Virus record (IMG/VR): IMGVR_UViG_3300026613_000033
Span: 505 to 64,504 of that record
DNA: 64,000 nt
Reading direction: 5' to 3' (one strand)
From: a virus
This document shows positions 4,123 through 27,200 of the stretch, piece by piece. Numbering within the stretch: the first letter of the stretch is position 1; every line of letters begins with the position of its first letter. The notes beneath the pieces were generated by a model that was not told where the DNA came from, made no database searches, and saw nothing but the letters and a program-made list of their open reading frames with translations. A program made the translations under genes and the position numbers.

Positions 4123-4644
4123 TCATAATTTAATTCTAAGTTCACCAGTGACTGTCTTATAGACATCCCCCGTCAATAGGCCACCCGAACCCGCCGCAGC
4201 ATCATCTGCGTAAGTTGGAAGTGAAATGACACGTAGTGTATTAACAACACTTGAGCTTCCGCCACCGCCGCTACCTATGCCTGAAACAGGAACCCAAGTT
4301 GGAACATTGGGTGCCTCACCAACATACCAAAGATATAAAGAACCACCGTCCACATCAGAAGAATTCCACCAAAGTGTACCTTCAGTCGGTGAAGTTGGCG
4401 CAGTATCTGAAACGATAACTTCCGTTCCGCCACCGCCGCCAATAGCAACCCATTCGCTGTCCTTGTAAATGATTACATCATCTTCGGAAAAATCTGTACC
4501 AGATACATTACCGTCGTCGGCGGCTATGTACATTATACCTTCAGTGGTATCTGTAGGGTACAAACCCGTAGATGGCAACCATTCCTTTTTAAGGATTATA
4601 TTGGTTGTGTTATCACCATAAAATATATCTGAAATTCTTGTCAT
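4123..4644 (-). CDS. Short fibre-like virion protein
   Basis: 173 aa; first ~70 aa are homologous to the N-terminus of the 1533-aa ORF (8611..13212); has the fibre motif VSDTAPTSPTEGTLWWNS and Gly linkers. Confidence 0.7.
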   Translation of the reverse strand: MTRISDIFYGDNTTNIILKKEWLPSTGLYPTDTTEGIMYIAADDGNVSGTDFSEDDVIIYKDSEWVAIGGGGGTEVIVSDTAPTSPTEGTLWWNSSDVDGGSLYLWYVGEAPNVPTWVPVSGIGSGGGGSSSVVNTLRVISLPTYADDAAAGSGGLLTGDVYKTVTGELRIKL

Positions 4645-4692: not shown

Positions 4693-5535
4693 TTATCCAT
4701 CTATTAAACAGATGTCTGAAATTTCGGTTAATACACCCGATGTGTGAAGCTTTTCTCTACTATGGTCGTTTAAGTCAACTTTCCAAATGGCACACTCAGA
4801 ACCATTGAATGCATTCTGACCTTTCATGAAATCAACAAATGATGACTTCTCACGGATATTAGAAGTAGCAACGTATGCATAACCATCGTGGATGACCAAG
4901 CCTCTCACAAAGCCTTTGAAGTGGTTTGAAATCACTTCTTTATTGGTCATATCCAAGTTGAATCTCAATAAAGAACTTGTGCCAGATTCGATGACATATA
5001 CCTTATCTTCATAAACAACTGGCGAATGTGGTAAAAGCACTTCAGCGTAGGTTTCCTCGTCACTGGTGTGCCATAAACGACCATTATTGAAATCATCTTT
5101 CCAAAAGGAATTGTAAGCCATAGCTGTCACGAAATATCCGCCGTCGTGTGGCTCAAAACCATTCAAATGAATGTAATCCATAGGCTCATCGCCATTTAAG
5201 TGAGAAGGCTTGTACACCACGTTACCATCGATGTCTTTAATAGAACTATCGTTGGTGTCGGCGTAATACATGGTTTCATCAACGCATTTCACTTGATGAC
5301 ACTGCATATGATTGAATTTAATGGCGGGTTTAATATCTATTTTATTCTGAGATAAATTAGAAGCCGATAATTCATAAACGTCGCCGTGTGTTATGATGTG
5401 AACGCCACCTTCTCCATTCGGGCATACACCGCCTACGGAAAATGTAAACGGTAAGTTCACCTTACGTGTTTCACCATTTTCTGTATCAGTGATTAGTAAT
5501 TTCAAATCACTTCTACTTACTGATATTATTTTCAT
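4693..5535 (-). CDS. DUF4915 / TIGR03032-like beta-propeller protein
   Basis: Motifs HLNG...YFVTA, LLPHSP..Y...VYVIESG, GFVRGL...YAYVATS..R match the TIGR03032 pattern as I recall it. Confidence 0.7.
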   Translation of the reverse strand: MKIISVSRSDLKLLITDTENGETRKVNLPFTFSVGGVCPNGEGGVHIITHGDVYELSASNLSQNKIDIKPAIKFNHMQCHQVKCVDETMYYADTNDSSIKDIDGNVVYKPSHLNGDEPMDYIHLNGFEPHDGGYFVTAMAYNSFWKDDFNNGRLWHTSDEETYAEVLLPHSPVVYEDKVYVIESGTSSLLRFNLDMTNKEVISNHFKGFVRGLVIHDGYAYVATSNIREKSSFVDFMKGQNAFNGSECAIWKVDLNDHSREKLHTSGVLTEISDICLIDG

Positions 5536-5571: not shown

Positions 5572-8500
5572 TTACACTGAACCGCTGTCATTCAATGTCC
5601 AACCGTAGGTTGTAATTGTGTCTCGGTCAGTTTGACGAGCCGAACTATACTGTGAAGGGAAAGTCCATGTCACGGAAGTGTCGGGGTAGTCGTTTATATT
5701 GGCCGCTATTGTCTGCAACCATGTGTCATAATTCGCTGTACTGAAGGCAGTACCTGTTAATATACTTGTCGCCACCTGTACGCCATCTATATCCCAACCA
5801 CTTATATCTTGGTTGAATAGCGGTGATGAATTCAAGAAGCTTTGCATGTTGATATTCGTTGAGTTTGGAATATTCAATGTCACCGTCGAATTGAAAATAT
5901 CACATGACTCTAAAGACCTAGATATAGTCACATTACCAGATGTATTAATGGTCAAGGAAACATTAGAATCCAGAGCGTCACAACCCAAAAACATTGATTG
6001 GCCATTGAATGCTCCACTCGTCTTAGTGATGTTTAAATTTATTGGTTGGTTGAAACTTGTACACCCGCTCAAGAAAGTATTCATAGTAAGAGTAGAACTA
6101 CCACTGTAAAAAGTGATGCCATCTATAGATGAATTCAATGATGTACACCCTTGGAACATACCGACACAGTTTGTTGTATTGGAAATATCCATCGTCATCA
6201 CTTGGTTCAATGAAGTACACCCTTGGAACATATTATTGAGTGTAGGGTTATTTGCGAAATCCCAACCCGATAAGTTGCGGTCAAAGGCGAAACATTCACG
6301 GAACATACTAGTCATTGTGTTCACACGAGAAACAACCCAAGAAGTAATATCACGGTTGAATACATCACAATATGCAAACATATTAGAGAATGAAATGTTA
6401 CCAGTGGTTTTGAACGTCCAGTTGTCAACATTACCATTAAATGATTCACAATTGTTGAACATCGAATTAAATGTTGAAGACGAAGAAACATCCCATGCGT
6501 CTAAATCCTGATTGAATGATGTCGCATTGATGAACGTCGAATCAAACGTTGTTGACGATGATGTATCCCAATTACTCAACGGCTGATTGAATACTGTGTT
6601 GTTTGCAAACATTGCAGAAAATGAAGTACAACCAACCGTCGTCCATGTGTTAATGGATGCATCGTTGAACGCATCGGAGCCAGAAAACATAGAACTTATG
6701 ATACAATTTGTTAAATCCCAGTTGGCAACGCTATTATTGAATACAACTGTATTTGCGAAAAAGTTTCTCATATCAATGCCAGTTGGGAATGAGAAATTGG
6801 CCATGTTTTGATTGAAAGCACTTGCGCTATTAAACATGTAACTAAGTGATGCCGCCGCAGGCCATGACATAGGTATAGGGCTGTCGAAGCTGCCCGTACC
6901 TTGGAACATAGACCTAGCCGAAGTGACATTCGTTGTATCAAAGAAACTTACATCTTGGTTGAATGCACTCGCATCCTCAAACATAGACCAGAAACTAGTC
7001 GCATTCGTCGTCGTCCATCCAGTGAGAGGTTGATTAAACGCAACTGTATCGGCGAACATCTCGCGGAATGTGGTAACTTGCGATACATCCCATGCGGATA
7101 TGTTACGGTTGAAATCTCTTGTGTTTCTAAACATACCCTGCATATCAACGGGCGCACTAGTATTAATCGTCCAATTATCAAGGTTGTTATTGAATGAGTC
7201 AGCATTGTTGAACATATTGTTAAAGTTCACGCCAGATGAAACATCCCACGTACTCAAATCCTGATTGAAGATATTACAGTTTTGGAACATACCAGAAAAA
7301 TCAGTAACACTAGAAACGTCTAAGTTGGCCACGGATGAATCCATCGCATTAGCGTTACTGAACATATTGGTGACAGACTTCAGTGCCGTCGAAGACCATG
7401 TTACAGCTTGGTTGAAGCTATTCGCATTAGAAAACATCGAATCGGCGAATTCCAAAGACGTTGGTGTCCACGCACTCACTGGTTGGTTGAATTGTGAACT
7501 GGTGAACATACCAATCGCTGTCACAAGTGATGACACATCCCATGCCGAAACGTCGCCGTTAAATATAGCACTAGAAAACATTGAATTAGCATTGGTTACG
7601 TTACCGAAACCGAAGTTAGCTAGTGAGCCATTGAATGACTGAGCATTAAAGAACATACTGGATGTTATTTGCGCGTCAGTGGCCACCCAACTGCTTAAAT
7701 CTTGGTCGAAGTCAACCGCACTAGCGAAAGTATTACTGAAATCCAATACGCTACTCACATCCCAATTACTTAATGGTTGATTGAAATTAGAAGCACTATT
7801 AAACGTGTAACTCATGTCAGTGACACTTGATGTATCCCAATGGTTCAACGATTGATTGAAATTTGTCGCCCCACTGAACATATAATATAATGATTCGGCA
7901 GTTGATGTCACAGTAAATATAGGGCTATTGAAACCTGAATTACTTTGGAACATACGTGAAAAATCAACGACGTTGGAAACATCCCAAGCACTCAAGTCTC
8001 GGTTAAATCCATCGGCGTTATTAAACATATTAGACATATCGGTCGCTGAACTTGTATCCCAACCTGATATATCTGGATTAAATGCATTGTTCGCACCACT
8101 GGCGAATGATGAGAAATCAACGACGTTAGAAACATCCCAAGCGGATATATCTAACCCTGTACTTAATGTAGATGACGCGCCTGCAAAACAACCCGCCAAA
8201 CTCGCGTTTTCAGCGAAATTCGGTTGAGTCGTTGATGTTATTGTATGTAAGCTCGATGAACTTTGGAATGTTAGAAGACGTATAGGCTGCGATGAAAACT
8301 GAACAATTTCTGTTAATCTTGTGAAGAATTGAAATCGCATACTAGGGAAAACCCCTTTGATTGTCACAGTATACAAACCACTAGAAGCATATGTGTGGCC
8401 AAATCCACTTGTACCGAAACTAGGTCTTATGTATTCAACATTACCATCACCCCAGTCAACGCTAAAGTCATATTGCTCGCTTGTATCTAGGGGGATGGAT

Positions 8501-8592
8501 AAAAATGAAGTGGTCGCTTGTACATTAAAAATTAAATCGGTATGCACTTCTCTCACATCGAAAGAAGCGCCTGCCGCTACTACTAAACTCAT
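5572..8592 (-). CDS. PARCEL/DUF285 (BspA-like) repeat adhesin with N-terminal PKD-like domain
   Basis: About 30 repeats of ~25 aa, consensus WDVSxVTxMxxMFxxAxxFNQxLS; N-terminal VDWGDG...HTY...G.YTVTI; typical cap FSTANYDTWL...WTLND. Confidence 0.85.
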   Translation of the reverse strand: MSLVVAAGASFDVREVHTDLIFNVQATTSFLSIPLDTSEQYDFSVDWGDGNVEYIRPSFGTSGFGHTYASSGLYTVTIKGVFPSMRFQFFTRLTEIVQFSSQPIRLLTFQSSSSLHTITSTTQPNFAENASLAGCFAGASSTLSTGLDISAWDVSNVVDFSSFASGANNAFNPDISGWDTSSATDMSNMFNNADGFNRDLSAWDVSNVVDFSRMFQSNSGFNSPIFTVTSTAESLYYMFSGATNFNQSLNHWDTSSVTDMSYTFNSASNFNQPLSNWDVSSVLDFSNTFASAVDFDQDLSSWVATDAQITSSMFFNAQSFNGSLANFGFGNVTNANSMFSSAIFNGDVSAWDVSSLVTAIGMFTSSQFNQPVSAWTPTSLEFADSMFSNANSFNQAVTWSSTALKSVTNMFSNANAMDSSVANLDVSSVTDFSGMFQNCNIFNQDLSTWDVSSGVNFNNMFNNADSFNNNLDNWTINTSAPVDMQGMFRNTRDFNRNISAWDVSQVTTFREMFADTVAFNQPLTGWTTTNATSFWSMFEDASAFNQDVSFFDTTNVTSARSMFQGTGSFDSPIPMSWPAAASLSYMFNSASAFNQNMANFSFPTGIDMRNFFANTVVFNNSVANWDLTNCIISSMFSGSDAFNDASINTWTTVGCTSFSAMFANNTVFNQPLSNWDTSSSTTFDSTFINATSFNQDLDAWDVSSSSTFNSMFNNCESFNGNVDNWTFKTTGNISFSNMFAYCDVFNRDITSWVVSRVNTMTSMFRECFAFDRNLSGWDFANNPTLNNMFQGCTSLNQVMTMDISNTTNCVGMFQGCTSLNSSIDGITFYSGSSTLTMNTFLSGCTSFNQPINLNITKTSGAFNGQSMFLGCDALDSNVSLTINTSGNVTISRSLESCDIFNSTVTLNIPNSTNINMQSFLNSSPLFNQDISGWDIDGVQVATSILTGTAFSTANYDTWLQTIAANINDYPDTSVTWTFPSQYSSARQTDRDTITTYGWTLNDSGSV

Positions 8593-8610
8593 AATTAATA
8601 CACCTTATGA

Positions 8611-11600
8611 TTATAATGCTGTGTGACCTTGGAATACGAATTCGCCTGCAACATCAGATATGAATGTAACAAGTGAGTATTGGCCACCAGTTTTTGTATG
8701 ATTCGATGTATTATTTAGTAAAGCATTTCCGCCCGTACCGTCACCGACAAAATTAACGTCACCAGTATTAGCCTGAACCACTGAGAAAGTGAAACCTAAA
8801 GGTAAGCTATCAGGTACAGTCAAATCCACCGCCGTTGTATTGGTGAAGCGTAAAACCTTACCCGCATCGGATGCCTGTACAGTGTAATTAACGCTATGCT
8901 CATCGATTGTTAAATCTGTGCTACCCGCGTTATCGTCAACATACTTCTTGGTCGCGATGTAAAGGTCTTCGTCACCGCCAGTCATATTCTCAGTTTGTGT
9001 ATCAAGACTGATATTAGTGTTCGCGTTCAATGTCACCGCGCCTGTAGAGGCCGTGATAGTTGAGTTCGCACCAGTGGCGGTAAAGCTACCTGTACCACTT
9101 GTAATTTGAACACCATTACCACTTAGAAGATTCATTAAACCGCTACCGCTTGATAACGTTAAACCAGTACCACCCGCAACGTACATTGTTGTACCACCTA
9201 CGAAAGAGGCAGTAGAACCCGGCGCAGAAGTAATATCAATATTACCATCACTAACAAACGAAGTTAATGTACCGTCAATGTCGAATACCGTCGATAAATT
9301 CCAGTTAGTACCAGACTTAACACCACGGATATATTGACCTGCGAATTTAGACTGATATGTTGTACCTTCACTCAAACCATTGACGTAAATAGTGTCGCCA
9401 CCTTGAGCCTGAAATTCAGGTAAGTAAAGTGGGTTTACAGTTTGGTCAATTAACAACTCAAAAGACGTATCATCGTATGAAGCTGTATCTGGTAAAATCC
9501 AAGTAGAGCTTGCCGCTGTGTCAGTAATTTGTGAAATAACACGGTCGCCAACTTCAATTGTATCTGTAGCAACTGTACCAGAAACCACACGCCAGTTTGA
9601 AATACTGTCATCGACATAACCTTTCGTTGCAACATACAATGCTGAATCATTTCCAGTCATCGCCGAAGTCTGTTGATTCAGACTCACGTTCGTGCTACCT
9701 GAAACAATCGCTTGACCAGTTGTTGACGTAATAGAAGCAACCGTATTACCAGTTACAGAAGCTGAGCTACCAGTTAATACGGCACCTTGGTTCGGCGCTT
9801 CTAATGTAAGGTCAGCGTTCTGTGCGGTGATTGTAATACCTGTACCAACCGACGTTGATTCAATGTCGATGTCGCCAGTCGTTGTGTAATCTTCAGTAAG
9901 GCCACCCGCAGATGAAGCGAATAAGTGCCATTGGCTATTTGTTCTAACACCACGGATATATTGACCATCGAATTCAGCGGTATAACCACCAACGCCAACG
10001 CCGTTCACGAAAATAGAACTAGGTGATGTCAAGTTAGGTAGTGTACCATCGGAATCAATAATCATCTCGAATGAGTAACCTTCGTACTCACTGTTATTCG
10101 GCATGATGAATGAAGTAGGCGTTAATGAGTTACTTGCATTCGCAACTATCTTCTCATCTTTACCGATGGTGTATGTCGCTAACGTAGAACCCGTTACTCT
10201 ATTCCAAGACTTATTCGTACTTACTGATAAGTACCAAGTTGAGTTAATGAAAACACCCTTGACGTATTGACCATCAAAATCAACTGGCCATGTCGTACCT
10301 TGGTTTACACCATTGACATAAATCGTAGAACTCGAAGTGAAGTTTGGTAACACCGAGCCATTTTGTTCAATGACAGCTTCGAAAGATGTGTCATCGTAAT
10401 CCGCTGCACTAGATAAGAACCAGTTTGTGGCTGTTATACCACTGTTACCAGAAGTCGCTATGACAACACGGTCGTCAACCAAAATTGAACCGCCTGTTAA
10501 AGAGGTCGATGCCACCCTTCTCCATGTTGGGTCATACGCATCAGTACCTGCAACATACAAGAACGTACCAACTGACGTTCTGATAACACGAATGTTATCA
10601 CCAATGTTTGATGTGTATGTACTTGAGCCACTATCCACGCCATTGATAATCCAGTTACCAGATGGTGAAGTTAATGTCGGTGTACGTGTATCCAATACAA
10701 TATCAGAAATAGATATTTCGGCATCCAATGGGTTATCTGAACCAAAGGTGATATTCGTTCTACTTGCACCGAAGTATGAATCAACTAAATGCTTTTCACC
10801 ATTTTGAACAACAATACTAGAAACACTAGTACCCGTTGTCACGATGGTTTCATCACTGCCTGTATCAGGTACGGCATTTAAGTCGAAGATGTTCCAGTTT
10901 TGGCCAATCTTCACGAACCTATAGTTGTCGTTACCAGTCTTCGGTAAATTGAACGTACTACTACCCGTTGACACACCATCTTTATGAAAGTAGAAACCAG
11001 ATGATGAGCTACCTGTATAAACAGATGTGAAACCACTTGCTGTACCAACACGGGCACTACTGAATTCAACAACCGTACCGTCGGGCGAGAAAGCGTTTAA
11101 TGTAAGTTGTGCCGTACCCGCCGATGAAGAAACCTCAGAGAAACGATAATTCACATTGGCACGTTCTGTGTTTATTGAGAAAGTACCTCGTGATGAATCC
11201 AATAAGTAATATTTGTAAGGTGGTTCTATGAAACCATACTGCGAATTACCATCATCTATGAAATTGGCGATAATGCCGTAACTACTGAAATCATGATACA
11301 TTTGCTCAAGTGGTATCCTTGAACCCACACCCATATCATTAATCCTAAGCTTCCACGATGAACCACCTTGAAATGTAAAGCTTTCTATATTAACGTTATG
11401 ACCGTTGGCATAAATGTACCAATCGTTATTATTAATAGAGTTGAATGAACCATTTAATGTGATGTCACCATAAAGGTATAAGTAAACAGAGGTAGTTGAC
11501 TGGATGATATAATGTGACACATCACCAGTACCATCCAAGAAAACATTACCAATGTAACGACTTGATGAATCTGTGAAATCCAATAATGGGTCACTGTTCG

Positions 11601-13212
11601 TGTAGTTATTGAATGAAACCCTCACCTTCTTATCAAACATCGGCAAATTACTACCAAATGTTGCACCACCACTCATGTTAATGGATACTGGACTAGAACT
11701 AGCGTCATTTTGGTCATTGTAGTTACCACGGATGACCACCGAACTCCAATCGAGGTTGGCGTAATCCGTTGATGATAAACTCATTGACTGATTAAGATTG
11801 ATTGTAGGATAGCCGCCACCCGTCACATTGGCTAGATAATCATTTAAGTCAGCCACTAATAATGATTCATCGAAGTAAGCATCCGATGGAGCGTATTGGT
11901 TGAATGTACCATAAACGAAAAGTTTTTCTAACGTCGGTGATGCCGCGTTCGGGTCGAATAAACCATCTAGTTTATTAACACCGCCGTTTTCATCGACTAA
12001 TACGATGTCGCCATTAGAGTATGTGATACCGCCGATTGTAGCAGGCACCGTTAAGCTAGATGTATCCAACTTGACGATTTCACGGTAGTATTCTTTTGCA
12101 ATAGGTAATACTTCACTGGTGTCATCTGTTAAAGTTAATGTACGGCTGTACGGCTTAGACACACGAGTGTAATCTGTTGCATCTTCAACGTAGATGATTT
12201 CTTCTGGGATAATATCAGACTCAACTGGTGAACCAGTGATTAACGCCAAACTACCCTGTACTTCTGGTGGGAAATCATCTTGTGTATATGATGTTGACTC
12301 ATTGAAGATAAGTGGGGCACCCGCGATAGTTTGCGTAGGTACAACATTTCTTAGACTGTAGTCTGTGATTGTATCGGTTCCTGATTTATTATAGTAAACC
12401 ACGAATGATGCGTTATCATCAGTCATTTCAGCCGCAGTTGCATAGCCACCGTAAATAGGGATACCAACGATAGTACCGCCAGTCACATCAGTTGTCATAT
12501 CATTGATGTACAACTCAATATCCATGGTGTCATTGCTGTTGTAACGGTATTTGAAACCAATGGTATTAGTTGATGCCATCGAAGGTATAGTGTAATTATT
12601 ACCATTAATGTCAATTTCACCACCAGTGCTACTTAATTGCATAGTGGCTAAAATGACAAACTTATCATTAGCGGGGTTGATGACGAAATCATCACTATTG
12701 AATTGAATAACGTATACTATCGCAGCGTCCGTAGAAGCCGTCACAAACGGGTCAAGTTCAAGGTAAACCGAATAGAATGTATCTAAGTCCATGTCAACGT
12801 CGAATGGATTACCTAATGCAGTGGCCTGACCGTCACCCGTGACTGTGATTTCTTCGGTGATGTAAGAAGCATTAGCGTCTGGACCTGTTAAACCATTTGA
12901 TACAATTAAAGCTGTATTGGTTTCGAAATCAACTGGGTTATCAGAAACTATTGATGAACCAGTGACTTCATATTCAACAAGACCACCGCCGCCAGAAGAG
13001 CTACCGAAACGCCCCCATGCGCCATCCTTATAAAGAATAGAATCACCCGTCACGAACGTTTCTGTGTTCACTGTACCGTCGTCTTCTGCGACATATACGA
13101 AGCCCTCAGACGTATCTGTAGGGAATGCACCAGATGAAGGATTCCATGGCTTTCTCAATAATAAATTTGTTGACCCATCACCGTAGATGAAATCTGAAAT
13201 TGGCTTACTCAT
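8611..13212 (-). CDS. Long tail fibre (1533 aa) with tandem ~95-aa domains and C-terminal tip domain Y
   Basis: Gly/Ser/Thr-rich; repeated units ending FDGQY.RG...W.LS; two ATK.YVD motifs; C-terminus YTVQASDAGK.L.F...T.P...GF.FSVVQ...G.V is homologous to the end of ORF 18295. Confidence 0.8.
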   Translation of the reverse strand: MSKPISDFIYGDGSTNLLLRKPWNPSSGAFPTDTSEGFVYVAEDDGTVNTETFVTGDSILYKDGAWGRFGSSSGGGGLVEYEVTGSSIVSDNPVDFETNTALIVSNGLTGPDANASYITEEITVTGDGQATALGNPFDVDMDLDTFYSVYLELDPFVTASTDAAIVYVIQFNSDDFVINPANDKFVILATMQLSSTGGEIDINGNNYTIPSMASTNTIGFKYRYNSNDTMDIELYINDMTTDVTGGTIVGIPIYGGYATAAEMTDDNASFVVYYNKSGTDTITDYSLRNVVPTQTIAGAPLIFNESTSYTQDDFPPEVQGSLALITGSPVESDIIPEEIIYVEDATDYTRVSKPYSRTLTLTDDTSEVLPIAKEYYREIVKLDTSSLTVPATIGGITYSNGDIVLVDENGGVNKLDGLFDPNAASPTLEKLFVYGTFNQYAPSDAYFDESLLVADLNDYLANVTGGGYPTINLNQSMSLSSTDYANLDWSSVVIRGNYNDQNDASSSPVSINMSGGATFGSNLPMFDKKVRVSFNNYTNSDPLLDFTDSSSRYIGNVFLDGTGDVSHYIIQSTTSVYLYLYGDITLNGSFNSINNNDWYIYANGHNVNIESFTFQGGSSWKLRINDMGVGSRIPLEQMYHDFSSYGIIANFIDDGNSQYGFIEPPYKYYLLDSSRGTFSINTERANVNYRFSEVSSSAGTAQLTLNAFSPDGTVVEFSSARVGTASGFTSVYTGSSSSGFYFHKDGVSTGSSTFNLPKTGNDNYRFVKIGQNWNIFDLNAVPDTGSDETIVTTGTSVSSIVVQNGEKHLVDSYFGASRTNITFGSDNPLDAEISISDIVLDTRTPTLTSPSGNWIINGVDSGSSTYTSNIGDNIRVIRTSVGTFLYVAGTDAYDPTWRRVASTSLTGGSILVDDRVVIATSGNSGITATNWFLSSAADYDDTSFEAVIEQNGSVLPNFTSSSTIYVNGVNQGTTWPVDFDGQYVKGVFINSTWYLSVSTNKSWNRVTGSTLATYTIGKDEKIVANASNSLTPTSFIMPNNSEYEGYSFEMIIDSDGTLPNLTSPSSIFVNGVGVGGYTAEFDGQYIRGVRTNSQWHLFASSAGGLTEDYTTTGDIDIESTSVGTGITITAQNADLTLEAPNQGAVLTGSSASVTGNTVASITSTTGQAIVSGSTNVSLNQQTSAMTGNDSALYVATKGYVDDSISNWRVVSGTVATDTIEVGDRVISQITDTAASSTWILPDTASYDDTSFELLIDQTVNPLYLPEFQAQGGDTIYVNGLSEGTTYQSKFAGQYIRGVKSGTNWNLSTVFDIDGTLTSFVSDGNIDITSAPGSTASFVGGTTMYVAGGTGLTLSSGSGLMNLLSGNGVQITSGTGSFTATGANSTITASTGAVTLNANTNISLDTQTENMTGGDEDLYIATKKYVDDNAGSTDLTIDEHSVNYTVQASDAGKVLRFTNTTAVDLTVPDSLPLGFTFSVVQANTGDVNFVGDGTGGNALLNNTSNHTKTGGQYSLVTFISDVAGEFVFQGHTAL

Positions 13213-13236
13213 TATTGTTATTCTCTTTATTCTTTA

Positions 13237-14385
13237 TTAAATTTTTATTCTTGTGTATCGGCCTGCCGTTCCTTGCTTACCGAATACTAGTAATTCATTA
13301 TGCTTATTCAATTGAACATGATAATCGTAACCGCTACCCCATGGTAAATCGGCTTCAGCTATTGTCGTATACTCTTGGGTGGGTAATACCAAAGATGAGT
13401 AATCACCTGTTACCGTTTTTACAACCCAAGTGTTATCACTATTGTCTCTATAACAAACACTAACTTGCCCATCCGACGACATAACGTAACTTAAATCGAA
13501 AGCGGTGATACCTGTACCACCACTGTAGTCTGTGTCGCCAAAATTTCGCCACACTGTATTCGATGTGTCCACGCCTTCGGCTTCGATGAAATAAAAGTTT
13601 TCGTCGCCTTCGTAAGCGTATAGGTATTGTCCATCGTTGGTTATTCTGGCACGGACGGTGAAATCAGCCGTGTTGTATTTTCTACCAACTATCGTAAGAT
13701 TATTTATGCCGCTACCTTGGTCATAATCGAAGTCAAATACATATTTATTAGAGGTTACGTTGACCACAAAACGCCTTGGGTTATCTAAAGCGAAATCCCA
13801 ATCTTTTATGCTCACTGAACCAAAAGACCAACTTTCGCCACTATCGACGTATGTTGTACCATTGAAATACCATAAGCTGAAAATCCTTGGTGTGTTCGGT
13901 ACAAGGACAACATTACCGTCGGGTGAAACTAAAGGCCCAACCGAAGGATATGAACCCCCGAAATCAGATAAAGCAATTGTGATGTCAATGTCAAATGTCG
14001 CCCAATCATCAGATGATGCCAGTATACGAGCATTATTATTTGTACCCAGATTACCGAGAGCTTGACCCAAAGCAACAATATTACCTTCTTTGTTCGCTGA
14101 AACAGTTTGACCCCACTGGTTATTGTAACTGAAACGAGTAACACCACTTGTGTTGCCATAGCTTTGAAAATCTGTGTAATAAACATTGTAATTTATTATG
14201 TTTGCACCATTGATAAAATCGCGGTATCCAGAAAACAAAACTTTACTTGTACCATTGGCCGAAACTTGGTTTTCATCAGTCACCCATAACCCATCGGTGG
14301 CCACGAATTCTTGGTATTCGGTGTCAGCCGTCAAATCAACGGTAGTCATTCTAAACGTGCCATCTGGCACTACTATGTTACTCAT
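13237..14385 (-). CDS. Beta-propeller protein, paralog 3
   Basis: 382 aa; repeated xSxDGxx blade motifs (VSANKEG, VSPDGN, ITNDGQ, MSSDGQ); tandem with two relatives. Confidence 0.7.
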   Translation of the reverse strand: MSNIVVPDGTFRMTTVDLTADTEYQEFVATDGLWVTDENQVSANGTSKVLFSGYRDFINGANIINYNVYYTDFQSYGNTSGVTRFSYNNQWGQTVSANKEGNIVALGQALGNLGTNNNARILASSDDWATFDIDITIALSDFGGSYPSVGPLVSPDGNVVLVPNTPRIFSLWYFNGTTYVDSGESWSFGSVSIKDWDFALDNPRRFVVNVTSNKYVFDFDYDQGSGINNLTIVGRKYNTADFTVRARITNDGQYLYAYEGDENFYFIEAEGVDTSNTVWRNFGDTDYSGGTGITAFDLSYVMSSDGQVSVCYRDNSDNTWVVKTVTGDYSSLVLPTQEYTTIAEADLPWGSGYDYHVQLNKHNELLVFGKQGTAGRYTRIKI

Positions 14386-15506
14386 TACCTAATACCTCCC
14401 GTCAATGGCTCATATCCCATTTTAACCACCTTGTGATTAAAGCTTTCTCCCCTATAACAAACAATCATTTCAGTCATGCTAAATGGAACGATGTAATTAA
14501 CAATATCGCCGAAAGCTGTTTCCAAATCCGCCACATTTATCTTCGCATGTTGAATCAATGTTGACATATCATAACCAGTTGTGCTATCATCCAATGTCGG
14601 GTAAACGAAACGAACGTAATCGTCGTCGCCACGGTAAGCAACCATAGGTACATACTTTCCATCACTTTTAGCGAAGTTGTATGAGCCATAGAATGCTGTA
14701 CATGATTCGGATTCCATTGATATGACCACTGGGGAACTAGGTGTACTTACGGCACCCACATTCCAGTACAAATCGTTTGCAAAATAGTCGTTATAAAAAA
14801 CCACATCACCCGTATATGAAACCGCCATCGTTGTATCATTGGTGCTATAAAATGGCACAATGTTGTAATATGAGAAAGAACCCATACTGGTTCCAGTTAT
14901 ATCAGCTCGATATATTCTATAATCCTGTTGAACATATTCATAAACCAATGCAAAAACTCTCGAACCGTCAGCCGAAATTTTAATCTGTTGAATACGTGCG
15001 TATGTAGCCAAGTCTCGACTTGAGCGAAGTGCCAAACCAGTACCATTGAACTCACGTAATTCAATTATGGCTTGGTCAGACTGGTGTCTTGCCGCCACTA
15101 AACTTCCATCTTCGTTAAGGTCGAATGCTCTAATCTGACCAGATGATAAAATAACAGAGCCGCTAGAAGACCAATCGTTATCAACGGATGTGTCGTAATA
15201 GTAAACACGTTGAGTACCATTGATATAAGCCATTATTTTTGTGCCGTCATTGCTTATACGACATGATGTGTTAAAAGTTGCATTACGCAAGAAGCTTTGT
15301 TGGTTTTTGTAAGCCTTGAATCGATAAACAGAACCCAATCCAGTTGAATCGTTTGCAAGAGCAACCGTTTTATTCACTGGTGAGAAATCAATCCCATATG
15401 CATATGGCTCAAAATCAACTGCGTTATCACCCGCGCCACTGTCTGGTAGCACTTTATTAACACCAACCCACTTCAATGAGCCGTCATTTGTATTAACGTC
15501 AGTCAT
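14385..15506 (-). CDS. Beta-propeller protein, paralog 2
   Basis: Likely start MTDVNT at 15506 with GGAGG RBS; blades ISNDGT, LNEDGS, ISADGS; C-terminus H.KI...DL...PFSMTEMIVCY is shared with paralog 1. Confidence 0.75.
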   Translation of the reverse strand: MTDVNTNDGSLKWVGVNKVLPDSGAGDNAVDFEPYAYGIDFSPVNKTVALANDSTGLGSVYRFKAYKNQQSFLRNATFNTSCRISNDGTKIMAYINGTQRVYYYDTSVDNDWSSSGSVILSSGQIRAFDLNEDGSLVAARHQSDQAIIELREFNGTGLALRSSRDLATYARIQQIKISADGSRVFALVYEYVQQDYRIYRADITGTSMGSFSYYNIVPFYSTNDTTMAVSYTGDVVFYNDYFANDLYWNVGAVSTPSSPVVISMESESCTAFYGSYNFAKSDGKYVPMVAYRGDDDYVRFVYPTLDDSTTGYDMSTLIQHAKINVADLETAFGDIVNYIVPFSMTEMIVCYRGESFNHKVVKMGYEPLTGGIR

Positions 15507-15507
15507 C

Positions 15508-16680
15508 TTATAATTCCTCCAATTCAAAGCCGTTCGACAATGGTGTGTAACTGACCTTTCTCAGTACATTAGTGGATAAGGCGAAATCGTAATAGCACAC
15601 AATCACTTCACTGAAGCTATAAGGCTTAACCCAAATTGGATTCAAGGTGCCATAAGTTAAATCGTTCTCATCGATTTTTCCGTGCATAACCATATTGTCG
15701 AAGTCACAGTCAAAGGTGTCTTCTGGCGTTGGCGTTGGGTATATGATGTAATAGAAGCCAGTGCCCGATTTGTATGATATGATTGGTATTGAATTAGTCG
15801 CCCCTTTAGGTAAAAAATAATCGTACCCAAATTGTGAGTCATACACTGAACCCGTGCCACCATCGACCATGATTGAATCCCAACTGGACGTACTTTCAGT
15901 AGTACCAGTCAAAGTGTAACCCAAGGTGTCGCCACCTTGACATATACCAAACATTTGCGAACCGTCGTGCGTTAATCCAAACTCACCTTGCGAATAACCA
16001 TCGAATGATGAAAACACCACCTTATTCGCAATCTGTGAACCTATGGTATTACCTGATAAGCTGTAAGTTTTCAAACGTCTACTTGTACCATTAAGGTGTC
16101 CAACCACCAGTCGCGTACCGTCGCCTGAAACTTCAATACCGCGTATCTGATTAGTACCCGCCACAACCTGCACAGAGTTACCTGCGAGCAATGAACCACC
16201 ACTGTATTCATGTGCTTGAATGTTATTATCAGATGCCGCCCCGACAACCACATTACCGTCAGCACTCATACCATGTGGGCAAAGACTAAATCTTGATGTG
16301 AAACTTAGTAGCTCATGTGTCTCCCAATCATCGGTTGTTCTGCGATAAAAAATAGTGTCATTACTCGGTGATGACCTTGTTGTCACAACGTCATTGGCCA
16401 AGCTCGTGTTGCAGTGGTTAGTTATAGTTGAAGAACCAAAATAAGTCTGTTCATCAAGCATTTCCACTTGGGTATTTCTGTACGTCTTAAATTCGTAAAC
16501 CCAAATGTGACCTGCTATATCTGTAGTGAATGTCACACGGGGCTTGTTCATTGTTATACGTGCATGTTTAGGTACTTCGGCGAATGAACCTGAACCAGTC
16601 TTTGACGACGTTAAATCAACGACTTCTCTACCGACGTACTTAACTGCTATATTACCTAGTGGTGTATTAATGTCTGTCAT
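15508..16680 (-). CDS. Beta-propeller protein, paralog 1
   Basis: 390 aa; blades MSADGN, VSGDGT, LTHDGS; C-terminus HGKIDENDL...PYSFSEVIVCY. Confidence 0.75.
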   Translation of the reverse strand: MTDINTPLGNIAVKYVGREVVDLTSSKTGSGSFAEVPKHARITMNKPRVTFTTDIAGHIWVYEFKTYRNTQVEMLDEQTYFGSSTITNHCNTSLANDVVTTRSSPSNDTIFYRRTTDDWETHELLSFTSRFSLCPHGMSADGNVVVGAASDNNIQAHEYSGGSLLAGNSVQVVAGTNQIRGIEVSGDGTRLVVGHLNGTSRRLKTYSLSGNTIGSQIANKVVFSSFDGYSQGEFGLTHDGSQMFGICQGGDTLGYTLTGTTESTSSWDSIMVDGGTGSVYDSQFGYDYFLPKGATNSIPIISYKSGTGFYYIIYPTPTPEDTFDCDFDNMVMHGKIDENDLTYGTLNPIWVKPYSFSEVIVCYYDFALSTNVLRKVSYTPLSNGFELEEL

Positions 16681-16697
16681 CTATAATTACCCCTTAA

Positions 16698-18290
16698 TTA
16701 ATTCACGATAACGATGTAATACGTTTCACCGGGTGTGAATCTAATACTGGTTCCACTTCCACCTACACCATCACCCTTAGCAACACGAGCGGCATCACCG
16801 AATGGACCACCTGTGTATGTTAGTGTACATGTGTCAGAACCACCACTACCGAAAAATGTCCAAGTTGGGGGGTCATTAGATGGGTCAGATGAAGCGCCTT
16901 CCCAAATTCTAATATCACTCCAATAACCTGTACTACCCGCGCCATTGGTGTCGAATACAAGTGCGTTGTCATATGAAAAAGGAAAACACGTCACAGCAAT
17001 ATCATTGTCGAAAAATAAACCGTCGATGTCGTAAGGCCCTATGTCTCTAGGTGATAAGTTACCAAATTCGCCACGAAGATAACCATTCTCACTGGCATTA
17101 CCCCCTGCAATCATTGTTTGAATAACGATGCCGCCGTCTAAGATAGTCCATGAGTGGTTATCCACTAAATCATCACGGTTAATTAAAGCAAGACCGTCGT
17201 AACGAGATGTACCGAAATCAACTGTCACATTACTCTGCACAGATTGAACACCCCAACCATTAAGAATATTGTTGTAAGTGGCGGTGTTCATATCATGGTC
17301 TTCCATGAAGCCAATCGCTGTCGTCAAACTTGTGACATCCCAGTTATTGACACCAAGGTTACTTGATGTCGTATTGATATTGGCTAACATGTAATCAGCA
17401 TTGGATAAACTCGATGTGTCCAATGAGCTTAATACGGTGTCATAAGAAACCGCATTTCTAAATAACTCAGACATATCTGTGACATTTGATGTCTCCCAAG
17501 AAGAAATATCACGGTCGAATAGTGGTGCATCTTTAAACGCCGCCGCCATATTCGTCAGAGCCGTGGTAGTAGTCCATGTGGAAATATCACGGTTGAATAC
17601 ATCAGCGCCTTCAAACATACTTGACATATCTTGTAAAGCAGTGAGTACCCATGTCTCGATGTCGCCATTGAAGCTATCCGCTTGCTTGAACATAGATGCC
17701 ATAGTGGTGACAGCAGAAACATCCCAACTACTTAAATCGGACGTAAACAATGAAGCACCTTCGAACATACCAGACATATCAGTGATACCAGTGGTATTCC
17801 AATTTGATAAATTTGCAACCAATGAAGAGTTATCTTTGAACATGTTGCGCATTGATGTGGCCGTACCAATCGTCGGCGGGTCAATCGCAGAATATCCAGA
17901 CAAATTAGTAGCCCCTTCGAACATGTTCTCGAAGTTTGACCAAGTGTTGTTGCCCCAATTCTTAATCGCCGTTATTTTCGTCACATCAGTAGAGCCACCG
18001 AATATAAGTTCGGGTGCTGTACCGCTAATGGTGATGTCATACTCACCCGCCGTCGTGTATGTGTGTGACATACCAGAAGTCGCCGATGAATTAATTACAT
18101 CACTATTACCATCACCCCAGTCGATGGTGATGTTGTATGCTTCGCCATTGGTCAATGGCATGAAGAATGTGTCATTAGCAGAACCACCCGCTAAGGTGGT
18201 ATCTACTTTAAAGATAAATGTTAAAACTGGTACAGGCGTTGGATTCTCATTTGATTCTAATATTCCAGACCTAAAAGCCGCTGTTGACAT
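16698..18290 (-). CDS. PARCEL/DUF285 (BspA-like) adhesin with PKD-like N-terminus and an extra C-terminal domain
   Basis: Likely start MSTAAFRSGIL at 18290 (GGAGG RBS); IDWGDG...HTY...GEYDITI; about 8 PARCEL repeats; cap YNNILNGW...WTILDGG. Confidence 0.85.
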   Translation of the reverse strand: MSTAAFRSGILESNENPTPVPVLTFIFKVDTTLAGGSANDTFFMPLTNGEAYNITIDWGDGNSDVINSSATSGMSHTYTTAGEYDITISGTAPELIFGGSTDVTKITAIKNWGNNTWSNFENMFEGATNLSGYSAIDPPTIGTATSMRNMFKDNSSLVANLSNWNTTGITDMSGMFEGASLFTSDLSSWDVSAVTTMASMFKQADSFNGDIETWVLTALQDMSSMFEGADVFNRDISTWTTTTALTNMAAAFKDAPLFDRDISSWETSNVTDMSELFRNAVSYDTVLSSLDTSSLSNADYMLANINTTSSNLGVNNWDVTSLTTAIGFMEDHDMNTATYNNILNGWGVQSVQSNVTVDFGTSRYDGLALINRDDLVDNHSWTILDGGIVIQTMIAGGNASENGYLRGEFGNLSPRDIGPYDIDGLFFDNDIAVTCFPFSYDNALVFDTNGAGSTGYWSDIRIWEGASSDPSNDPPTWTFFGSGGSDTCTLTYTGGPFGDAARVAKGDGVGGSGTSIRFTPGETYYIVIVN

Positions 18291-18294
18291 TATT

Positions 18295-21213
18295 TTATGC
18301 CTCCGTCGCACCGCCCACCGTGAATGTACCATCAAGTCGGGATACGAATGTTGCCATTGCGTGTTGACCGCGTGTTCTTACATGTGAATCGACATTGTTT
18401 ACAGTGGCTGTACCACCCCAAACAATCTTACCATCACCCGATTGTATTACTGTGAAAGAGAAGTTATCTCCTAGTCCAGTATTTATGGTCAATGTTATGG
18501 TTGAATTATTATTGAATTCGATTGTTTTACCATTATCCGCAGCATCTACTGTATAAGTCGTGCCTGTCTCAAGAACAACGTCTGTTGATGCGCTACCGCC
18601 ACCCGTTATAATCCACCAACGTGAACTATTACCTGATAGGTATGCATTACGAACAAACTTGATTGTTTGACCTTTCGGCGCTTCATAAACGGTTGTACCA
18701 ATATCAACACCGTTGACGATGAAGTTACCAGATTGTGACGTGAAAGTTACATCAGCGGGTCTACCCGTAACGATGAATTCAACGTATGGTAATTTGTCAT
18801 CACCTGATTGTGGCGTGTCAGTCGGAAGGTTATAATTAATCGTTCCACTATCGGTCTTAACACGAACATGGTAACGTTTGTCAACTTCAATCGTCGTAGA
18901 ACCCGCTTGGCCTGAATCTAAGTAAGTGAAAAGGTCAACCGCTTGGTCACGCATGTCAACAGTATCGGTGAATGTAGAAACACCAGAAATGTTGGTTTCG
19001 CCTAAGTTAGTGATAGTCGAAGTAAAGTCTTGCGTTGTACCGTTAAATGTGTTATCACCCGTGAAGATGTTATCACCATTTAATGTCCATACACCGTCGA
19101 TAGTCCAATCAGAAGTAATCGTCCTAGCTTGGTCAATCTCTTCACCTTCTTCATCACGGAAGAATAAAGAACCGTCGCCGTCGGTGTAAAGTAATTGACC
19201 TGCATTACCATCGGCATTAGGCATCTTGAAGCCTTGTATCCATAGGTTGCCGCCGTTACCCGCCGTTACCTCGAAGTCACCACCCGCTTGAAGAACAAGT
19301 GTTGAACCTGCGTCATCAACGATATTGAACTCACCGCCGTTATTTGCATTGACGTTCATTACAGTATCAACTTCAACCGATGTCGTCATACCGAACGTCG
19401 CTGTCGTTCCTCTGAAATCAATGCTGTCTAAATCGTCAGTTGCACCTATACGAATATTACGATTAAAACGCGCTACGAAAATACTACCATTACCAATATC
19501 AATTGTGCTTGATGTTGAACAGTTAAGTACCGAACTGAATGAATTAATTTCCAAGTAACCCGTTGAATTATTAGTACCAATCGTCACAGTTGGTGACATT
19601 GTGGTAGTTGTGCCAGTGATGTTCACATTACCAGACATATTCACTGTTGAGTTGAAGTTGTTGGTATTAGTGAATGTGTTCTCATCGGCCAATACAGCAA
19701 CGCCAGTTGGTACACTAGAAGCAACTAAGTCATCAACGTATAATTTTGTCGTCGGGTGCGAATTAGTCGTCGGTGTTCCAATTAATACTTCAACGGCAGT
19801 GAAATTATTCGTACCGCTTGTGTACGTGTTGCTTTGATTAATGAAGGCAACGTCCGTCGGTGATGAATTATCAACATATTCTTTAGTGGCGGGTGCATTA
19901 TTCGCGCTACCACCTGTGATAGACGGAACCGTCACGTCAGAGCCTGTAAGGTCTAATGTGCCAGTGTGAGTATCACTACCAGAAAATGTATTATCGCCTG
20001 TGAAGGTGTTATTGCCTGTGAAGGCGTTATTGCCGGGCTGTGTGGCAACTACTATACCGCTATCGTCAATGATTACATTGTTGATGACCGTTGTTTCGCC
20101 TTTTTCGATAATAGCCCAACCAGTTGAACCACCAACGAATACCAATTCGATAGCCATACCGATTTGGTTCATTTCAATGTCTTCAGTCTCGCCATTGATT
20201 GTTTCACCATTACGCAAAATGGTCACTGGGTTAGTTGCGTATGTTGGCTCTAATGGTGCAATCTGAACAATGTAACCATCGATTGGCGATAGTGGTAAAA
20301 TGACATCAAAAGCGCCACCTGTACTATCGGCTAAAATACGGTCTGCATTACTAAGTTGATAACCCGCGCCTGCGTCAGCCGTGGTAACAACTACCCATTC
20401 ATTTAAAACTGTGTCTTCATTTACTATGCGCCACGCATGTTCTTCGCCGACATGGTTAGCGTCTATGTTTGTTACACGAATGGCACCTTGCGAATATACT
20501 ACGGTGACATTGTGTGAGTGTCCTTCATTCGTACTTGATGCAACAACAATCGATGGTGTTGTTTCGTCAATTAATGCAATCAAGTTATCAACCGTTACCG
20601 CCACTGCGTGTGTATGCGATGGCGTACCACCCGCTGTCAATTCAATAAGTACAGAAGCGCCGTCGGTTGTGATATTGTTTATTAATGCGGCATCGCCATA
20701 ATCAACGACTACCCAACCAACCGTCGGGTCGATGTAGTACATTTCAATGGATTTGCCAACTTGGTCAACGATTAAATCTGTCGCTGAACCCATGATGTTT
20801 TCACCACCCGCTGTAGAAATAGTCAGCGGATTAGTGTCGTAAGTTGGATTCAAAGGTATAAATGCAAAACGCATACCTTGACCAGTCGGTGTAGGTAAAG
20901 TTACCTCAACTGGATTTGTGGTTGTGTCAACAACATATTCCGTTTCAACGGAAGGTGTTTGGTCAGTAGAAATCACCACCCAATCTGGGTCAACTACTCC
21001 CGCCTTTTCCCAAGACGTAGGTGTAGCTCCCTTCTTCTCGTAACGGGTGCTATCAACGATGTCGATATAATACGAACCGAGCGTTGCGTTATTTACACTA
21101 GGGTCAGATGATGAATTAGGTTCACCGCTACCCTTTAACGTAATTTGTCGGTTTGCGAATTCGACGTTATTACTTTCAACATGATTATCAAATAGTAAGT
21201 CTGAAACTGCCAT
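18295..21213 (-). CDS. Tail fibre (972 aa): N-terminal anchor A, two gp9/gp10-like domains, HxH segment, tip domain Y
   Basis: N-terminus nearly identical to ORF 21318..23273; duplicated unit (YVVDTT...VTLP...TNPLTI...G.W) occurs twice; NxFTG repeats; TK.YVD motifs. Confidence 0.8.
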   Translation of the reverse strand: MAVSDLLFDNHVESNNVEFANRQITLKGSGEPNSSSDPSVNNATLGSYYIDIVDSTRYEKKGATPTSWEKAGVVDPDWVVISTDQTPSVETEYVVDTTTNPVEVTLPTPTGQGMRFAFIPLNPTYDTNPLTISTAGGENIMGSATDLIVDQVGKSIEMYYIDPTVGWVVVDYGDAALINNITTDGASVLIELTAGGTPSHTHAVAVTVDNLIALIDETTPSIVVASSTNEGHSHNVTVVYSQGAIRVTNIDANHVGEEHAWRIVNEDTVLNEWVVVTTADAGAGYQLSNADRILADSTGGAFDVILPLSPIDGYIVQIAPLEPTYATNPVTILRNGETINGETEDIEMNQIGMAIELVFVGGSTGWAIIEKGETTVINNVIIDDSGIVVATQPGNNAFTGNNTFTGDNTFSGSDTHTGTLDLTGSDVTVPSITGGSANNAPATKEYVDNSSPTDVAFINQSNTYTSGTNNFTAVEVLIGTPTTNSHPTTKLYVDDLVASSVPTGVAVLADENTFTNTNNFNSTVNMSGNVNITGTTTTMSPTVTIGTNNSTGYLEINSFSSVLNCSTSSTIDIGNGSIFVARFNRNIRIGATDDLDSIDFRGTTATFGMTTSVEVDTVMNVNANNGGEFNIVDDAGSTLVLQAGGDFEVTAGNGGNLWIQGFKMPNADGNAGQLLYTDGDGSLFFRDEEGEEIDQARTITSDWTIDGVWTLNGDNIFTGDNTFNGTTQDFTSTITNLGETNISGVSTFTDTVDMRDQAVDLFTYLDSGQAGSTTIEVDKRYHVRVKTDSGTINYNLPTDTPQSGDDKLPYVEFIVTGRPADVTFTSQSGNFIVNGVDIGTTVYEAPKGQTIKFVRNAYLSGNSSRWWIITGGGSASTDVVLETGTTYTVDAADNGKTIEFNNNSTITLTINTGLGDNFSFTVIQSGDGKIVWGGTATVNNVDSHVRTRGQHAMATFVSRLDGTFTVGGATEA

Positions 21214-21270: not shown

Positions 21271-21307
21271 CTTATATTTATGGCGCTCCGAAGAGCGCCA
21301 ATATAAG
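21271..21307 (-). terminator. C(UUCG)G hairpin (terminator or stabiliser) overlapping a late promoter
   Basis: Minus strand GGCGCTC-TTCG-GAGCGCC, extendable with a 3-nt bulge; CATAAATA at 21275..21282 lies in its 3' arm; no clean U tract. Confidence 0.6.
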
Positions 21308-26210: not shown

Positions 26211-27200
26211 TTAAATGAAATATTCAACTAAAATCGTACCTGAACCCTGAGTTACCCCAGTGCCCAAAGAAATTTCAGCCGTAATTTGTCGTTCGGTGAC
26301 ATTAGAACCAGTCTTTAACATCAGCGCATTCTCATAAATACCGCTAACTTCCGCCTCAACAAGGTCTGAAGTCATAATGATTGTGCCGTTTGCCTGTGTA
26401 CCAATCTCAATAGTTGTTTCTGTTGAACCGTCGAATGCGTCATCTATTTGTACCTTCGCACTAAAGATGTAAGCATTTTCTGGTATGGTGCCACCAATTA
26501 AAAATGGCGCACCCGCATCAGCGAATGTAAAATCATAAGAACGTCCTAAAACATTCTCAGTGACCGCACCGCCACCAGTAACAATTTCCCATGCATTATC
26601 TCTACGTCCATATATGTTGCCGTCAGATGGTGCATCTTGGATACCCAACTGAGTCGTGTCCAAGTCAGTGAACTGCGTATTGGCAACAGCCGTTATCGCA
26701 GCGTTGACTTTGTATATAGAGCCTTCATGTGTGATGATGTCATCTAAGCTATACGACGTATTTATTGCATAGCCTTTGATACCACCACCGATTTCGTAAG
26801 TCTCAACATCGCTGAACTGTGTGTTGTTCGCCGCAATGATGCTACTCACTACAGTGTAGATATAACCGCCATTAGCTAGTAAGTCACCGACACCGTAATC
26901 TGTTCCCGCCGCATATGGTTGTACCGCACCACCTACGCCGCCGCCACCGCCAATATCAACGGTAGTCCAATCTGAATCCAAGATACCATCTTCCAGTGTC
27001 CAAACTGTCTGTGTATCTATTTGATAAACCCACATCCCTTCTTCACGACGTGCATCAGTAATAGCAAGTCGCGCAGCCGCATCAGCCACCGCACGGAAAC
27101 CGCCTTTACCATATTCGGTAAAATGCGTTGGGTACTTATCTAAAGTATCCGTAGGCGAAATCGGTGATGTGAATTTAATTGTGTTTTCTATAGCCGCCAT
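26211..27200 (-). CDS. Virion protein: YPTH-type N-domain, two CBM5/12-like repeats, foldon-like motif, C-terminal domain X
   Basis: YPTHFTEYGKGGFR...RREEGMWVY; repeats Y..G..Y..GD.....G.IY.V; DAPSDGNIYGRRDNAW. Confidence 0.7.
   Translation of the reverse strand: MAAIENTIKFTSPISPTDTLDKYPTHFTEYGKGGFRAVADAAARLAITDARREEGMWVYQIDTQTVWTLEDGILDSDWTTVDIGGGGGVGGAVQPYAAGTDYGVGDLLANGGYIYTVVSSIIAANNTQFSDVETYEIGGGIKGYAINTSYSLDDIITHEGSIYKVNAAITAVANTQFTDLDTTQLGIQDAPSDGNIYGRRDNAWEIVTGGGAVTENVLGRSYDFTFADAGAPFLIGGTIPENAYIFSAKVQIDDAFDGSTETTIEIGTQANGTIIMTSDLVEAEVSGIYENALMLKTGSNVTERQITAEISLGTGVTQGSGTILVEYFI

Follow-up and report, generated by a model that had tools for sequence, protein, structure and literature searches.

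How do adhesin-like proteins that carry no recognisable virion-anchor domain become part of a phage particle? This question is raised by a window of 64,000 nucleotides, bases 505-64504 of a 71,367-bp IMG/VR virus contig (IMGVR_UViG_3300026613_000033), in which two long fibre genes end in the same C-terminal domain, here called Y, and each is followed at once by a gene for a protein with a PKD-like module and leucine-rich repeats (LRRs) of the DUF285 type (also PARCEL or BspA-type repeats). A sequence-only reading had described this arrangement as a gp37/gp38-like logic, in which Y is a docking socket for swappable solenoid adhesins, whose repeat number might tune reach or specificity. The open reading frames (ORFs), their strand and their coordinates were confirmed:

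18295..21213, minus strand: fibre 1, 972 amino acids (aa), beta-sandwich beads and shaft segments, ending in knob Y
18298..18621, minus strand: domain Y of fibre 1, residues 865-972
16698..18290, minus strand: short protein with a PKD-like module and DUF285 LRRs, 530 aa when counted from the ATG at 18290
8611..13212, minus strand: fibre 2, 1533 aa, N-terminal anchor module, several beads and knob Y at residues ~1429-1533
5572..8592, minus strand: long PKD-like + DUF285 LRR protein, 1006 aa, ~32 LRR units

We consider it probable, at roughly 65%, that the DUF285 proteins are fibre-associated adhesins. They would act as accessory receptor-binding proteins which are co-transcribed with the fibre gene and which are carried into the virion on the fibre whose gene lies just upstream. 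Attachment would most likely be made by the N-terminal peptide and the PKD module onto the Y knob, resulting in a two-component, branched or capped fibre in which Y and PKD form the joint, while the LRR and C-terminal parts, including the fast-evolving C-terminal domain of the short protein, would touch the host surface. That the docking site is Y itself is a more tentative proposal, which we hold at somewhat less than an even bet. The data show which domains are present, how the genes are ordered and how well order and single domains are conserved, whereas association with the virion, the site of docking and the binding of a receptor are inferred.

The arrangement of the genes carries most of this reading. 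The short DUF285 gene starts 4 nt behind the stop codon of fibre 1 (GGAGG 9 nt upstream), its true start being the ATG at 18290 and not the TTG at 18335, and the long DUF285 gene starts 18 nt behind that of fibre 2 (AAGGTG upstream); each downstream gene possesses its own Shine-Dalgarno sequence. Six distinct orthologous loci have a Y-ended fibre gene directly ahead of a PKD + DUF285 gene, the stop of one overlapping the start of the other. One is in the window, another in a relative of 347-410 kb, and the remaining four are on shorter contigs, whose DUF285 proteins are ~46-57% identical to those of the window. A metagenome scan performed with a narrow alignment returned the 410-kb contig only, which was already among the relatives. 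In the relative (locus L009), fibre 2 (P0008, 967 aa) shares the N-terminal ~360 aa, lacks Y as well as the downstream DUF285 gene, and runs directly into a DUF4915 gene. Because both are missing together, the Y knob and the DUF285 gene of fibre 2 are gained or lost as a unit.

The same order recurs in the Sphingomonas jumbo phage PAU (219 kb), in which the sole Y gene, gp102, is followed after 4 nt by the sole DUF285 gene, gp103, encoding a protein of 1857 aa, and in which the gene neighbours of both are unrelated to those of the window:

L096:7368-7961: PAU gp102, a 197-aa mini-fibre in which the fibre N-terminal motif ('GDYLI...GDLYRKENGIW') is directly followed by the Y knob

Within the lineage, tip domain and downstream gene are thus inherited together, and their order recurs in PAU; Y loci as a whole, or DUF285 loci as a whole, do not follow this rule, as described below.

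Conservation is distributed unevenly along both partners. Among the orthologues of fibre 1, Y is the most conserved part (63-73% identity versus 40-56% elsewhere), and the bead just before Y has been swapped, with 10-16% identity remaining. The orthologues of the short protein are 60-69% identical in the PKD module, 43-55% in the LRRs and 33-38% in the C-terminal domain. Judged from these alignments, this would be the pattern expected of a conserved joint with a variable outer face.

Both downstream proteins belong to DUF285, defined here by a PF03382 match above the 25-bit gathering score together with tandem repeats of ~25 residues: the 5572-8592 ORF scores 538.1 bits in 10 stretches and the 16698-18290 ORF 228.7 bits in 3 stretches, and the DUF285 matches across the whole contig are confined to these two ORFs. 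The ~25-residue tryptophan periodicity yields ~9 repeat units in the short and ~32 in the long protein, close to the ~8 and ~30 that had been counted before. In the short protein, a disordered N-terminus of ~21 aa leads into a beta-sandwich and the ~9 LRR units, which are followed by a helical cap and by a variable, beta-rich C-terminal domain of ~150 aa, and the long protein terminates with a typical DUF285 C-terminal cap, without an extra C-terminal domain. The label PKD-like is less secure. The AlphaFold2 model of the short protein contains a confident beta-sandwich at residues 22-110 (predicted local distance difference test, pLDDT, ~90), next to LRRs at 70-94, residues 1-21 below 50 and a low-scoring C-terminus; the sequence matches stay below the Pfam cut-offs (P0003: PF00801/PF18911 20.3 and 19.9 bits, E 6e-4 to 8e-4, cut-offs 23.5 and 27), and P0001 gave no PKD match in the Pfam scan. 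Database homologues of the downstream proteins carry PF00801 or PF18911 in precomputed lists. The first 21 residues of the short protein are conserved among orthologues ('SGILESNEN') though predicted to be disordered. Neither N-terminus showed a signal peptide, lipobox or membrane anchor when the translations were read by eye, with no dedicated predictor applied, and the PDB holds no sequence relative of the DUF285 module.

The DUF285 family is overwhelmingly cellular, with members annotated as BspA family LRR surface proteins. In phages it is frequent in jumbo phages, the cyanophage ACG-2014f and Prevotella and Listeria phages, where it is annotated and unstudied: our literature search returned no paper assigning a role to phage DUF285/BspA-type LRR proteins, and the jumbo-phage review of Iyer et al. 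mentions neither DUF285, PARCEL, BspA nor LRR. About half of the viral PKD + DUF285 modules are fused behind varied N-terminal regions, which in other phages are Hoc-like Ig domains, extra DUF285 or regions of unknown nature, without recognisable fibre anchors.

The two fibres would be long, trimeric bead-on-a-string fibres, each tipped by Y. Fibre 1 has beads at residues ~78-172, 272-372 and 766-866, linked by shaft segments, and the knob at ~875-972. Its residues 88-159 match T4_gp9_10_N (PF07880) with 23.6 bits (E 6e-5), slightly below the 25-bit cut-off, and its residues 92-170 match the N-terminal domain of the tailspike TSP4 of phage CBA120 (7rfv_A residues 98-175; phmmer E 3.3e-4). Fibre 2 carries two 'ATKxYVDD' needle segments, gave no sequence match in the PDB, and has an N-terminal anchor module common to other fibres of the window. 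Its first ~75 residues recur, at 52-59% identity, at the start of a 173-aa ORF (4123-4644, minus strand) and likewise at the start of another fibre in the relative (L009:21958-23426), and this shared start would seem from its recurrence to be an N-terminal anchor module for several fibres.

Domain Y itself has no Pfam family. The last ~100 residues of fibres 1 and 2 can be aligned with 36% identity over 103 aa (E 3e-14), and a profile built from 48 Y domains matches these two ORFs only in the window (E 3.7e-40 and 5.9e-30); neither Y nor DUF285 recurs elsewhere in the contig, in keeping with the earlier statement for the window. The 'DWGDGN' N-terminal modules of the short and the long protein are 32% identical; an origin of the second pair as a recent duplicate of the first is rejected on the identities of the Y domains and of these modules. 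With fibre-1 Y alone or fibre-2 Y alone as queries, viral relatives were not found, and a tblastn search of the window Y against phages gave no match; a near-consensus Y was needed for phage matches. The AlphaFold2 model of the fibre-1 Y is all-beta with a mean pLDDT of 92.5. Among solved structures, the one closest to it is the C-terminal knob of gp52, the capsid spike of Pa223 (PDB 9ny6; Foldseek template modelling score, TM, 0.80, E 5e-6; VIA Z 14.0, root-mean-square deviation, rmsd, 3.4 over 105 residues), accompanied by a weak profile match (E 0.044). Weaker, at VIA Z 9.9, is the match to a baseplate protein of Klebsiella phage KP1, followed at VIA Z 8.7 both by the gp10-like XD (N-terminal) domains of CBA120 TSP4 (rmsd 3.2 over 100 residues) and by the C-terminal domain of a tailspike from an Acinetobacter phage; to TSP4, as to T4 gp9 and gp10 (Foldseek TM 0.47-0.53), the likeness of Y is structural only. 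In TSP4 and the KP1 protein, such domains serve as docking platforms for other tailspikes. Among the VIA-align matches listed for Y there is no TNF or C1q chain, though the Pa223 authors assign their knob to the TNF fold. The proteins that carry Y range from 98 to 3206 aa and have it almost always at their extreme C-terminus; in 80 viral loci, the usual distance from its last residue to the stop codon is 0-3 residues. Some metagenomic giant proteins (P0010, P0011, P0046) contain tandem Y domains, for example 22 stretches in 3206 aa and 16 in 2401 aa, and because of these many tandem copies Y can serve as an internal repeated bead too, beyond its use as a terminal knob. Y is a generic, widespread and unnamed knob at the ends of fibres and tailspikes, of a fold class that is used both as free distal ends and as adaptors.

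A complex of the two partners of pair 1 was predicted from three Y domains and the first 235 aa of the short adhesin. The Y trimer with the adhesin reached an ipSAE of 0.48 (runs 0.44, 0.53 and 0.48), compared with 0.02 for the best of 3 controls; the runs share at least 74% of the contacts, and the pLDDT of the partner is at least 89. In the calibration of the tool, the mark was reached by 58 of 80 solved complexes and by 2 of 110 mismatched pairs, and scores up to 0.60 contain just 7 of the passing solved complexes and both passing mismatches. For pair 1, a multimer check of the kind proposed in the sequence-only reading ended in a weak pass.

Several findings weigh against fibre-borne adhesins that dock on Y. 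By that calibration, a pass of this kind lends weak support and, taken alone, is wrong in more cases than it is right, except where the guess had been a likely one from the start. The conservation of Y is explained equally well by a trimerisation or folding nucleus. Y is found in 2040 clusters at 50% identity (E <= 0.001, exhaustive HMMER), as befits a generic domain; in cultured phages it forms the ends of Gordonia phage minor tail proteins, roseophage virion proteins and Ruegeria phage tail proteins, and in metagenomes it also stands behind pectate-lyase-type tailspike domains. Of 50 viral contigs with Y, 49 have no DUF285, the sole exception having it 50 kb from Y; all five of these contigs that are at least 90% complete lack it. 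No DUF285 lies within 6 kb of Y in 80 IMG/VR Y loci, and conversely no Y lies within 7 kb of viral PKD + DUF285 in 80 loci or inside the PKD + DUF285 ORFs themselves (0/80). The jumbo phages pEt-SU, OBP and LR756500 possess DUF285 and lack Y, and the two nearest Y domains outside the lineage (58-59% identity) have unrelated genes downstream, which speaks against a general socket. Among the top 120 of 2213 Y proteins there is no fusion of Y with DUF285 or with LamG. The Pa223 spike carries its distal knob on a triple beta-helix, and its authors suggest a role in host binding or adsorption (bioRxiv 10.1101/2025.06.11.659172). Finally, published proteomic evidence of any phage DUF285 protein in a virion was not found in the literature. 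The expectation that a PARCEL gene follows Y as a general rule has to be given up, Y being commonly without such a partner, an outcome that the sequence-only reading itself had named as refuting, and a dedicated or general socket for DUF285 adhesins is not supported; within this lineage, several independent lines do point to a specific link, in which docking would be plausible.

The main rival explanation takes Y as the fibre's own distal receptor-binding and/or trimerisation knob and the DUF285 proteins as independent virion adhesins attached elsewhere, for instance to the gp10-like beads towards the N-terminus of fibre 1 or straight to the baseplate, so that the adjacency would reflect the clustering of fibre genes in a late operon inherited within the lineage. 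Much of the distribution fits it: thousands of fibre and tailspike proteins end in Y with no DUF285 nearby, the solved structure most like Y is a free distal knob, that of the Pa223 spike, the putative gp10/TSP4-like beads of fibre 1 would offer other docking sites, and the genes from 21213 to 1177 all lie on one strand with tiny gaps between them. This explanation does not, however, account for the joint presence or absence of Y and the DUF285 gene in fibre 2 or for the adjoining of the only Y gene and the only DUF285 gene of PAU, and it sits poorly with Y being the most conserved and not the most variable part of the fibre and with a complex prediction that passes, weakly, against clean controls. 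We regard it as doubtful.

Two further explanations keep the DUF285 proteins off the mature fibre or give them another task on it. They might be non-virion proteins, expressed late and acting in or on the infected cell, surface-displayed or released, where they would mask receptors, block superinfection or bind other cells without a physical link to the fibre. The N-terminal fusions of the module in other phages, which are not recognisable as fibre anchors, and a literature search that gave no proteomic sign of virion association agree with this; the lack of export signals in the translations read by eye (no dedicated predictor), the position of the genes within the fibre operon behind a late-promoter-like motif and the conserved adjacency to Y argue against it, as do OBP and pEt-SU, in which the DUF285 genes sit between genes annotated as virion structural or baseplate, and we consider it quite improbable. 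Tfa and gp38 are encoded just after their fibre gene, and a place directly downstream combined with co-inheritance with the C-terminal domain of the fibre is the classic Tfa/gp38 signature; by that analogy the downstream proteins could be mainly chaperone-like assembly factors for the Y-ended fibres, as T4 gp38 or Mu/lambda Tfa, whether bound afterwards or not. A PKD sandwich with a long LRR solenoid in proteins of 530 and 1006 aa is, however, unlike any known fibre chaperone, Y folds confidently alone in thousands of proteins with differing downstream genes, and the distal end of the partner is its most variable part, as for a binding surface and not for a chaperone, which renders this explanation very improbable.

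If the DUF285 proteins are indeed fibre-associated adhesins, several known systems invite comparison. The likeness to T-even gp37/gp38 (T2, T6, S16 type) is one of organisation: the adhesin gene stands directly after the fibre gene, the C-terminal domain of the fibre and the downstream gene are inherited as one cassette, and a conserved joint with a variable binding surface is proposed. There is no relation to the window proteins in sequence or fold; neither fibre matches the gp37 family in Pfam or PHROGs, no gp37 tip is among the fold matches listed for Y, and the Pfam and PHROG scans of both downstream proteins gave DUF285-type families only and no gp38 match. The gp37/gp38-like logic therefore holds for gene organisation within the lineage and not for homology. 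Unlike gp38, an adhesin of ~260 aa with glycine-rich motifs, the partner in the window is a PKD + LRR solenoid of 530-1006 aa, Y is a generic knob mostly without such a partner, and binding here rests on a weak prediction.

In the branched complexes of CBA120 (TSP2/TSP4) and G7C (gp66/gp63.1), one fibre uses a small beta-sandwich to grip a second receptor-binding protein by its N-terminus, as is proposed here. Fibre 1 of the window has a putative gp10/TSP4-like domain by sequence, and the Y fold resembles the TSP4 N-terminal domains. Their adaptors are N-proximal, though, and their partners are tailspike enzymes with an N-terminal adaptor of their own, whereas the candidate socket of the window is the extreme C-terminal knob and the partner an LRR protein. 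Pa223 gp52 forms a trimeric fibre, which contains a triple beta-helix and ends in a knob resembling Y; unlike the fibres of the window it decorates the capsid and not the tail, with no partner protein reported on the knob. The DUF285 proteins of jumbo phages (PAU gp103, OBP_145, pEt-SU_084 and vB_pir03 ORF200 and ORF287) are of the same Pfam family, contain the N-terminal PKD-like 'DWGDG' module and lie next to structural genes. The majority are single polypeptides of giant size (1700-6400 aa) that lack a neighbouring Y gene, whereas the window has two small or medium-sized separate copies, each paired with a Y-ended fibre; the Y-then-DUF285 order of the window is seen in PAU gp102/gp103. Chimalliviruses such as Goslar have DUF7941 'fibre cloud' proteins, in which a small dedicated attachment module fixes heads of LRR or carbohydrate-binding type to the outside of the particle (10.64898/2026.04.21.720040). 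This is a further giant-phage solution of the sort proposed here, but the DUF7941 module is a different one, is fused to the head in one polypeptide and has no homology to Y or to the N-terminal peptide. The pairs of the window are a variant of the known theme of a fibre plus a separate adhesin, and the variant itself is new.

Y is also accompanied by other types of heads. In 32 of 64 IMG/VR loci the gene just downstream of Y belongs to one BLAST cluster of proteins of ~255 aa (sometimes ~475 aa), the loci often being interrelated so that the counts are not independent. The tested members match the LamG/concanavalin-A-like lectin family above the Pfam cut-off and carry no anchor domain, and the fibre backbones on which Y precedes this cluster are of at least three unrelated kinds. 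Two examples from loci L012-L067 are:

L012:6279-7043: knob + lectin
L027:1060-2484: knob + lectin

Other genes behind Y are LRR-like or SGNH-esterase-like in single loci, and elsewhere unknown genes or a portal gene; in Gordonia phage Tolls, roseophage RD-1410Ws-07 and Ruegeria phage V16, the genes behind Y that were scanned matched no Pfam family. Going by gene order, a Y knob and a small anchorless lectin-type protein may together form a common two-gene module, and the DUF285 pairs would then be one version of it. A broader proposal, that Y is a general mounting knob across marine and soil phages, on which anchorless lectin-type heads dock by a short N-terminal peptide in a widespread two-component system with exchangeable heads, is speculative and we rate it as unlikely.

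DUF285/BspA LRR proteins are common in jumbo phages and cyanophages, and Y occurs in more than 2000 clusters without a Pfam family. If the LRR proteins ride on Y-tipped fibres, a large class of 'hypothetical' phage genes would gain a function, it would be explained how giant phages add binding specificities without rebuilding the fibre, and a natural two-part scaffold for the study of host recognition would be at hand. If they do not bind, the pairing would still be a conserved cassette that is useful for annotating the fibre modules of uncultured T4-like giant phages.

The source of the window is an uncultured giant T4-like myovirus, and the window covers its baseplate and fibre module. Because the contig of 71,367 bp is rated 32% complete by CheckV, a genome size above 200 kb is expected. 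Megablast with 19 kb of the region as query gave no match among 50,697 phage records. Nearly all genes of the window are on the minus strand. By PHROG, they include a T4-type tail and baseplate module with the gp5 hub/lysozyme, the wedge proteins gp6, gp7 and gp8, the head-closure proteins gp13/14 and the tail-sheath stabiliser gp15, downstream of which follows a run of fibre-like genes; the two pairs occupy 21213 to 5572 of this run. A late-promoter-like motif, CATAAATA, is present in 12 copies versus 4.2 expected, a number reached by 0 of 100 shuffles, and the copies are mostly on the minus strand, intergenic and ahead of late genes. Besides 9 others, the sites are:

21275-21282: CATAAATA, in the intergenic space upstream of fibre 1
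18480-18487: CATAAATA
13701-13708: CATAAATA

One copy falls inside the part of the fibre 1 gene that codes for Y, ~190 nt ahead of the short DUF285 gene.

Between the two pairs stand three further genes of the run:

13237..16680, minus strand: three tandem paralogues of ~380 aa with ~20% mutual identity and a common N-terminus

These gave no Pfam or PHROG match; they follow the short DUF285 gene in the relatives L009, L185 and L186 and may be further components of the same fibre module. The fibre-2 unit is followed by a DUF4915 protein (4693-5535, minus strand; E 1.5e-25) in the window and equally in the relative of 347-410 kb. A protein of 2197 aa (39700-46293, minus strand) lies between the neck and baseplate genes and matches phrog_358, of unknown function, with E 7e-295. 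Two adjacent proteins of the structural region (26211-27200 and 27206-28954, minus strand) contain CBM_5_12 carbohydrate (chitin-type) binding modules, with E values of 2e-7 and 2e-14.

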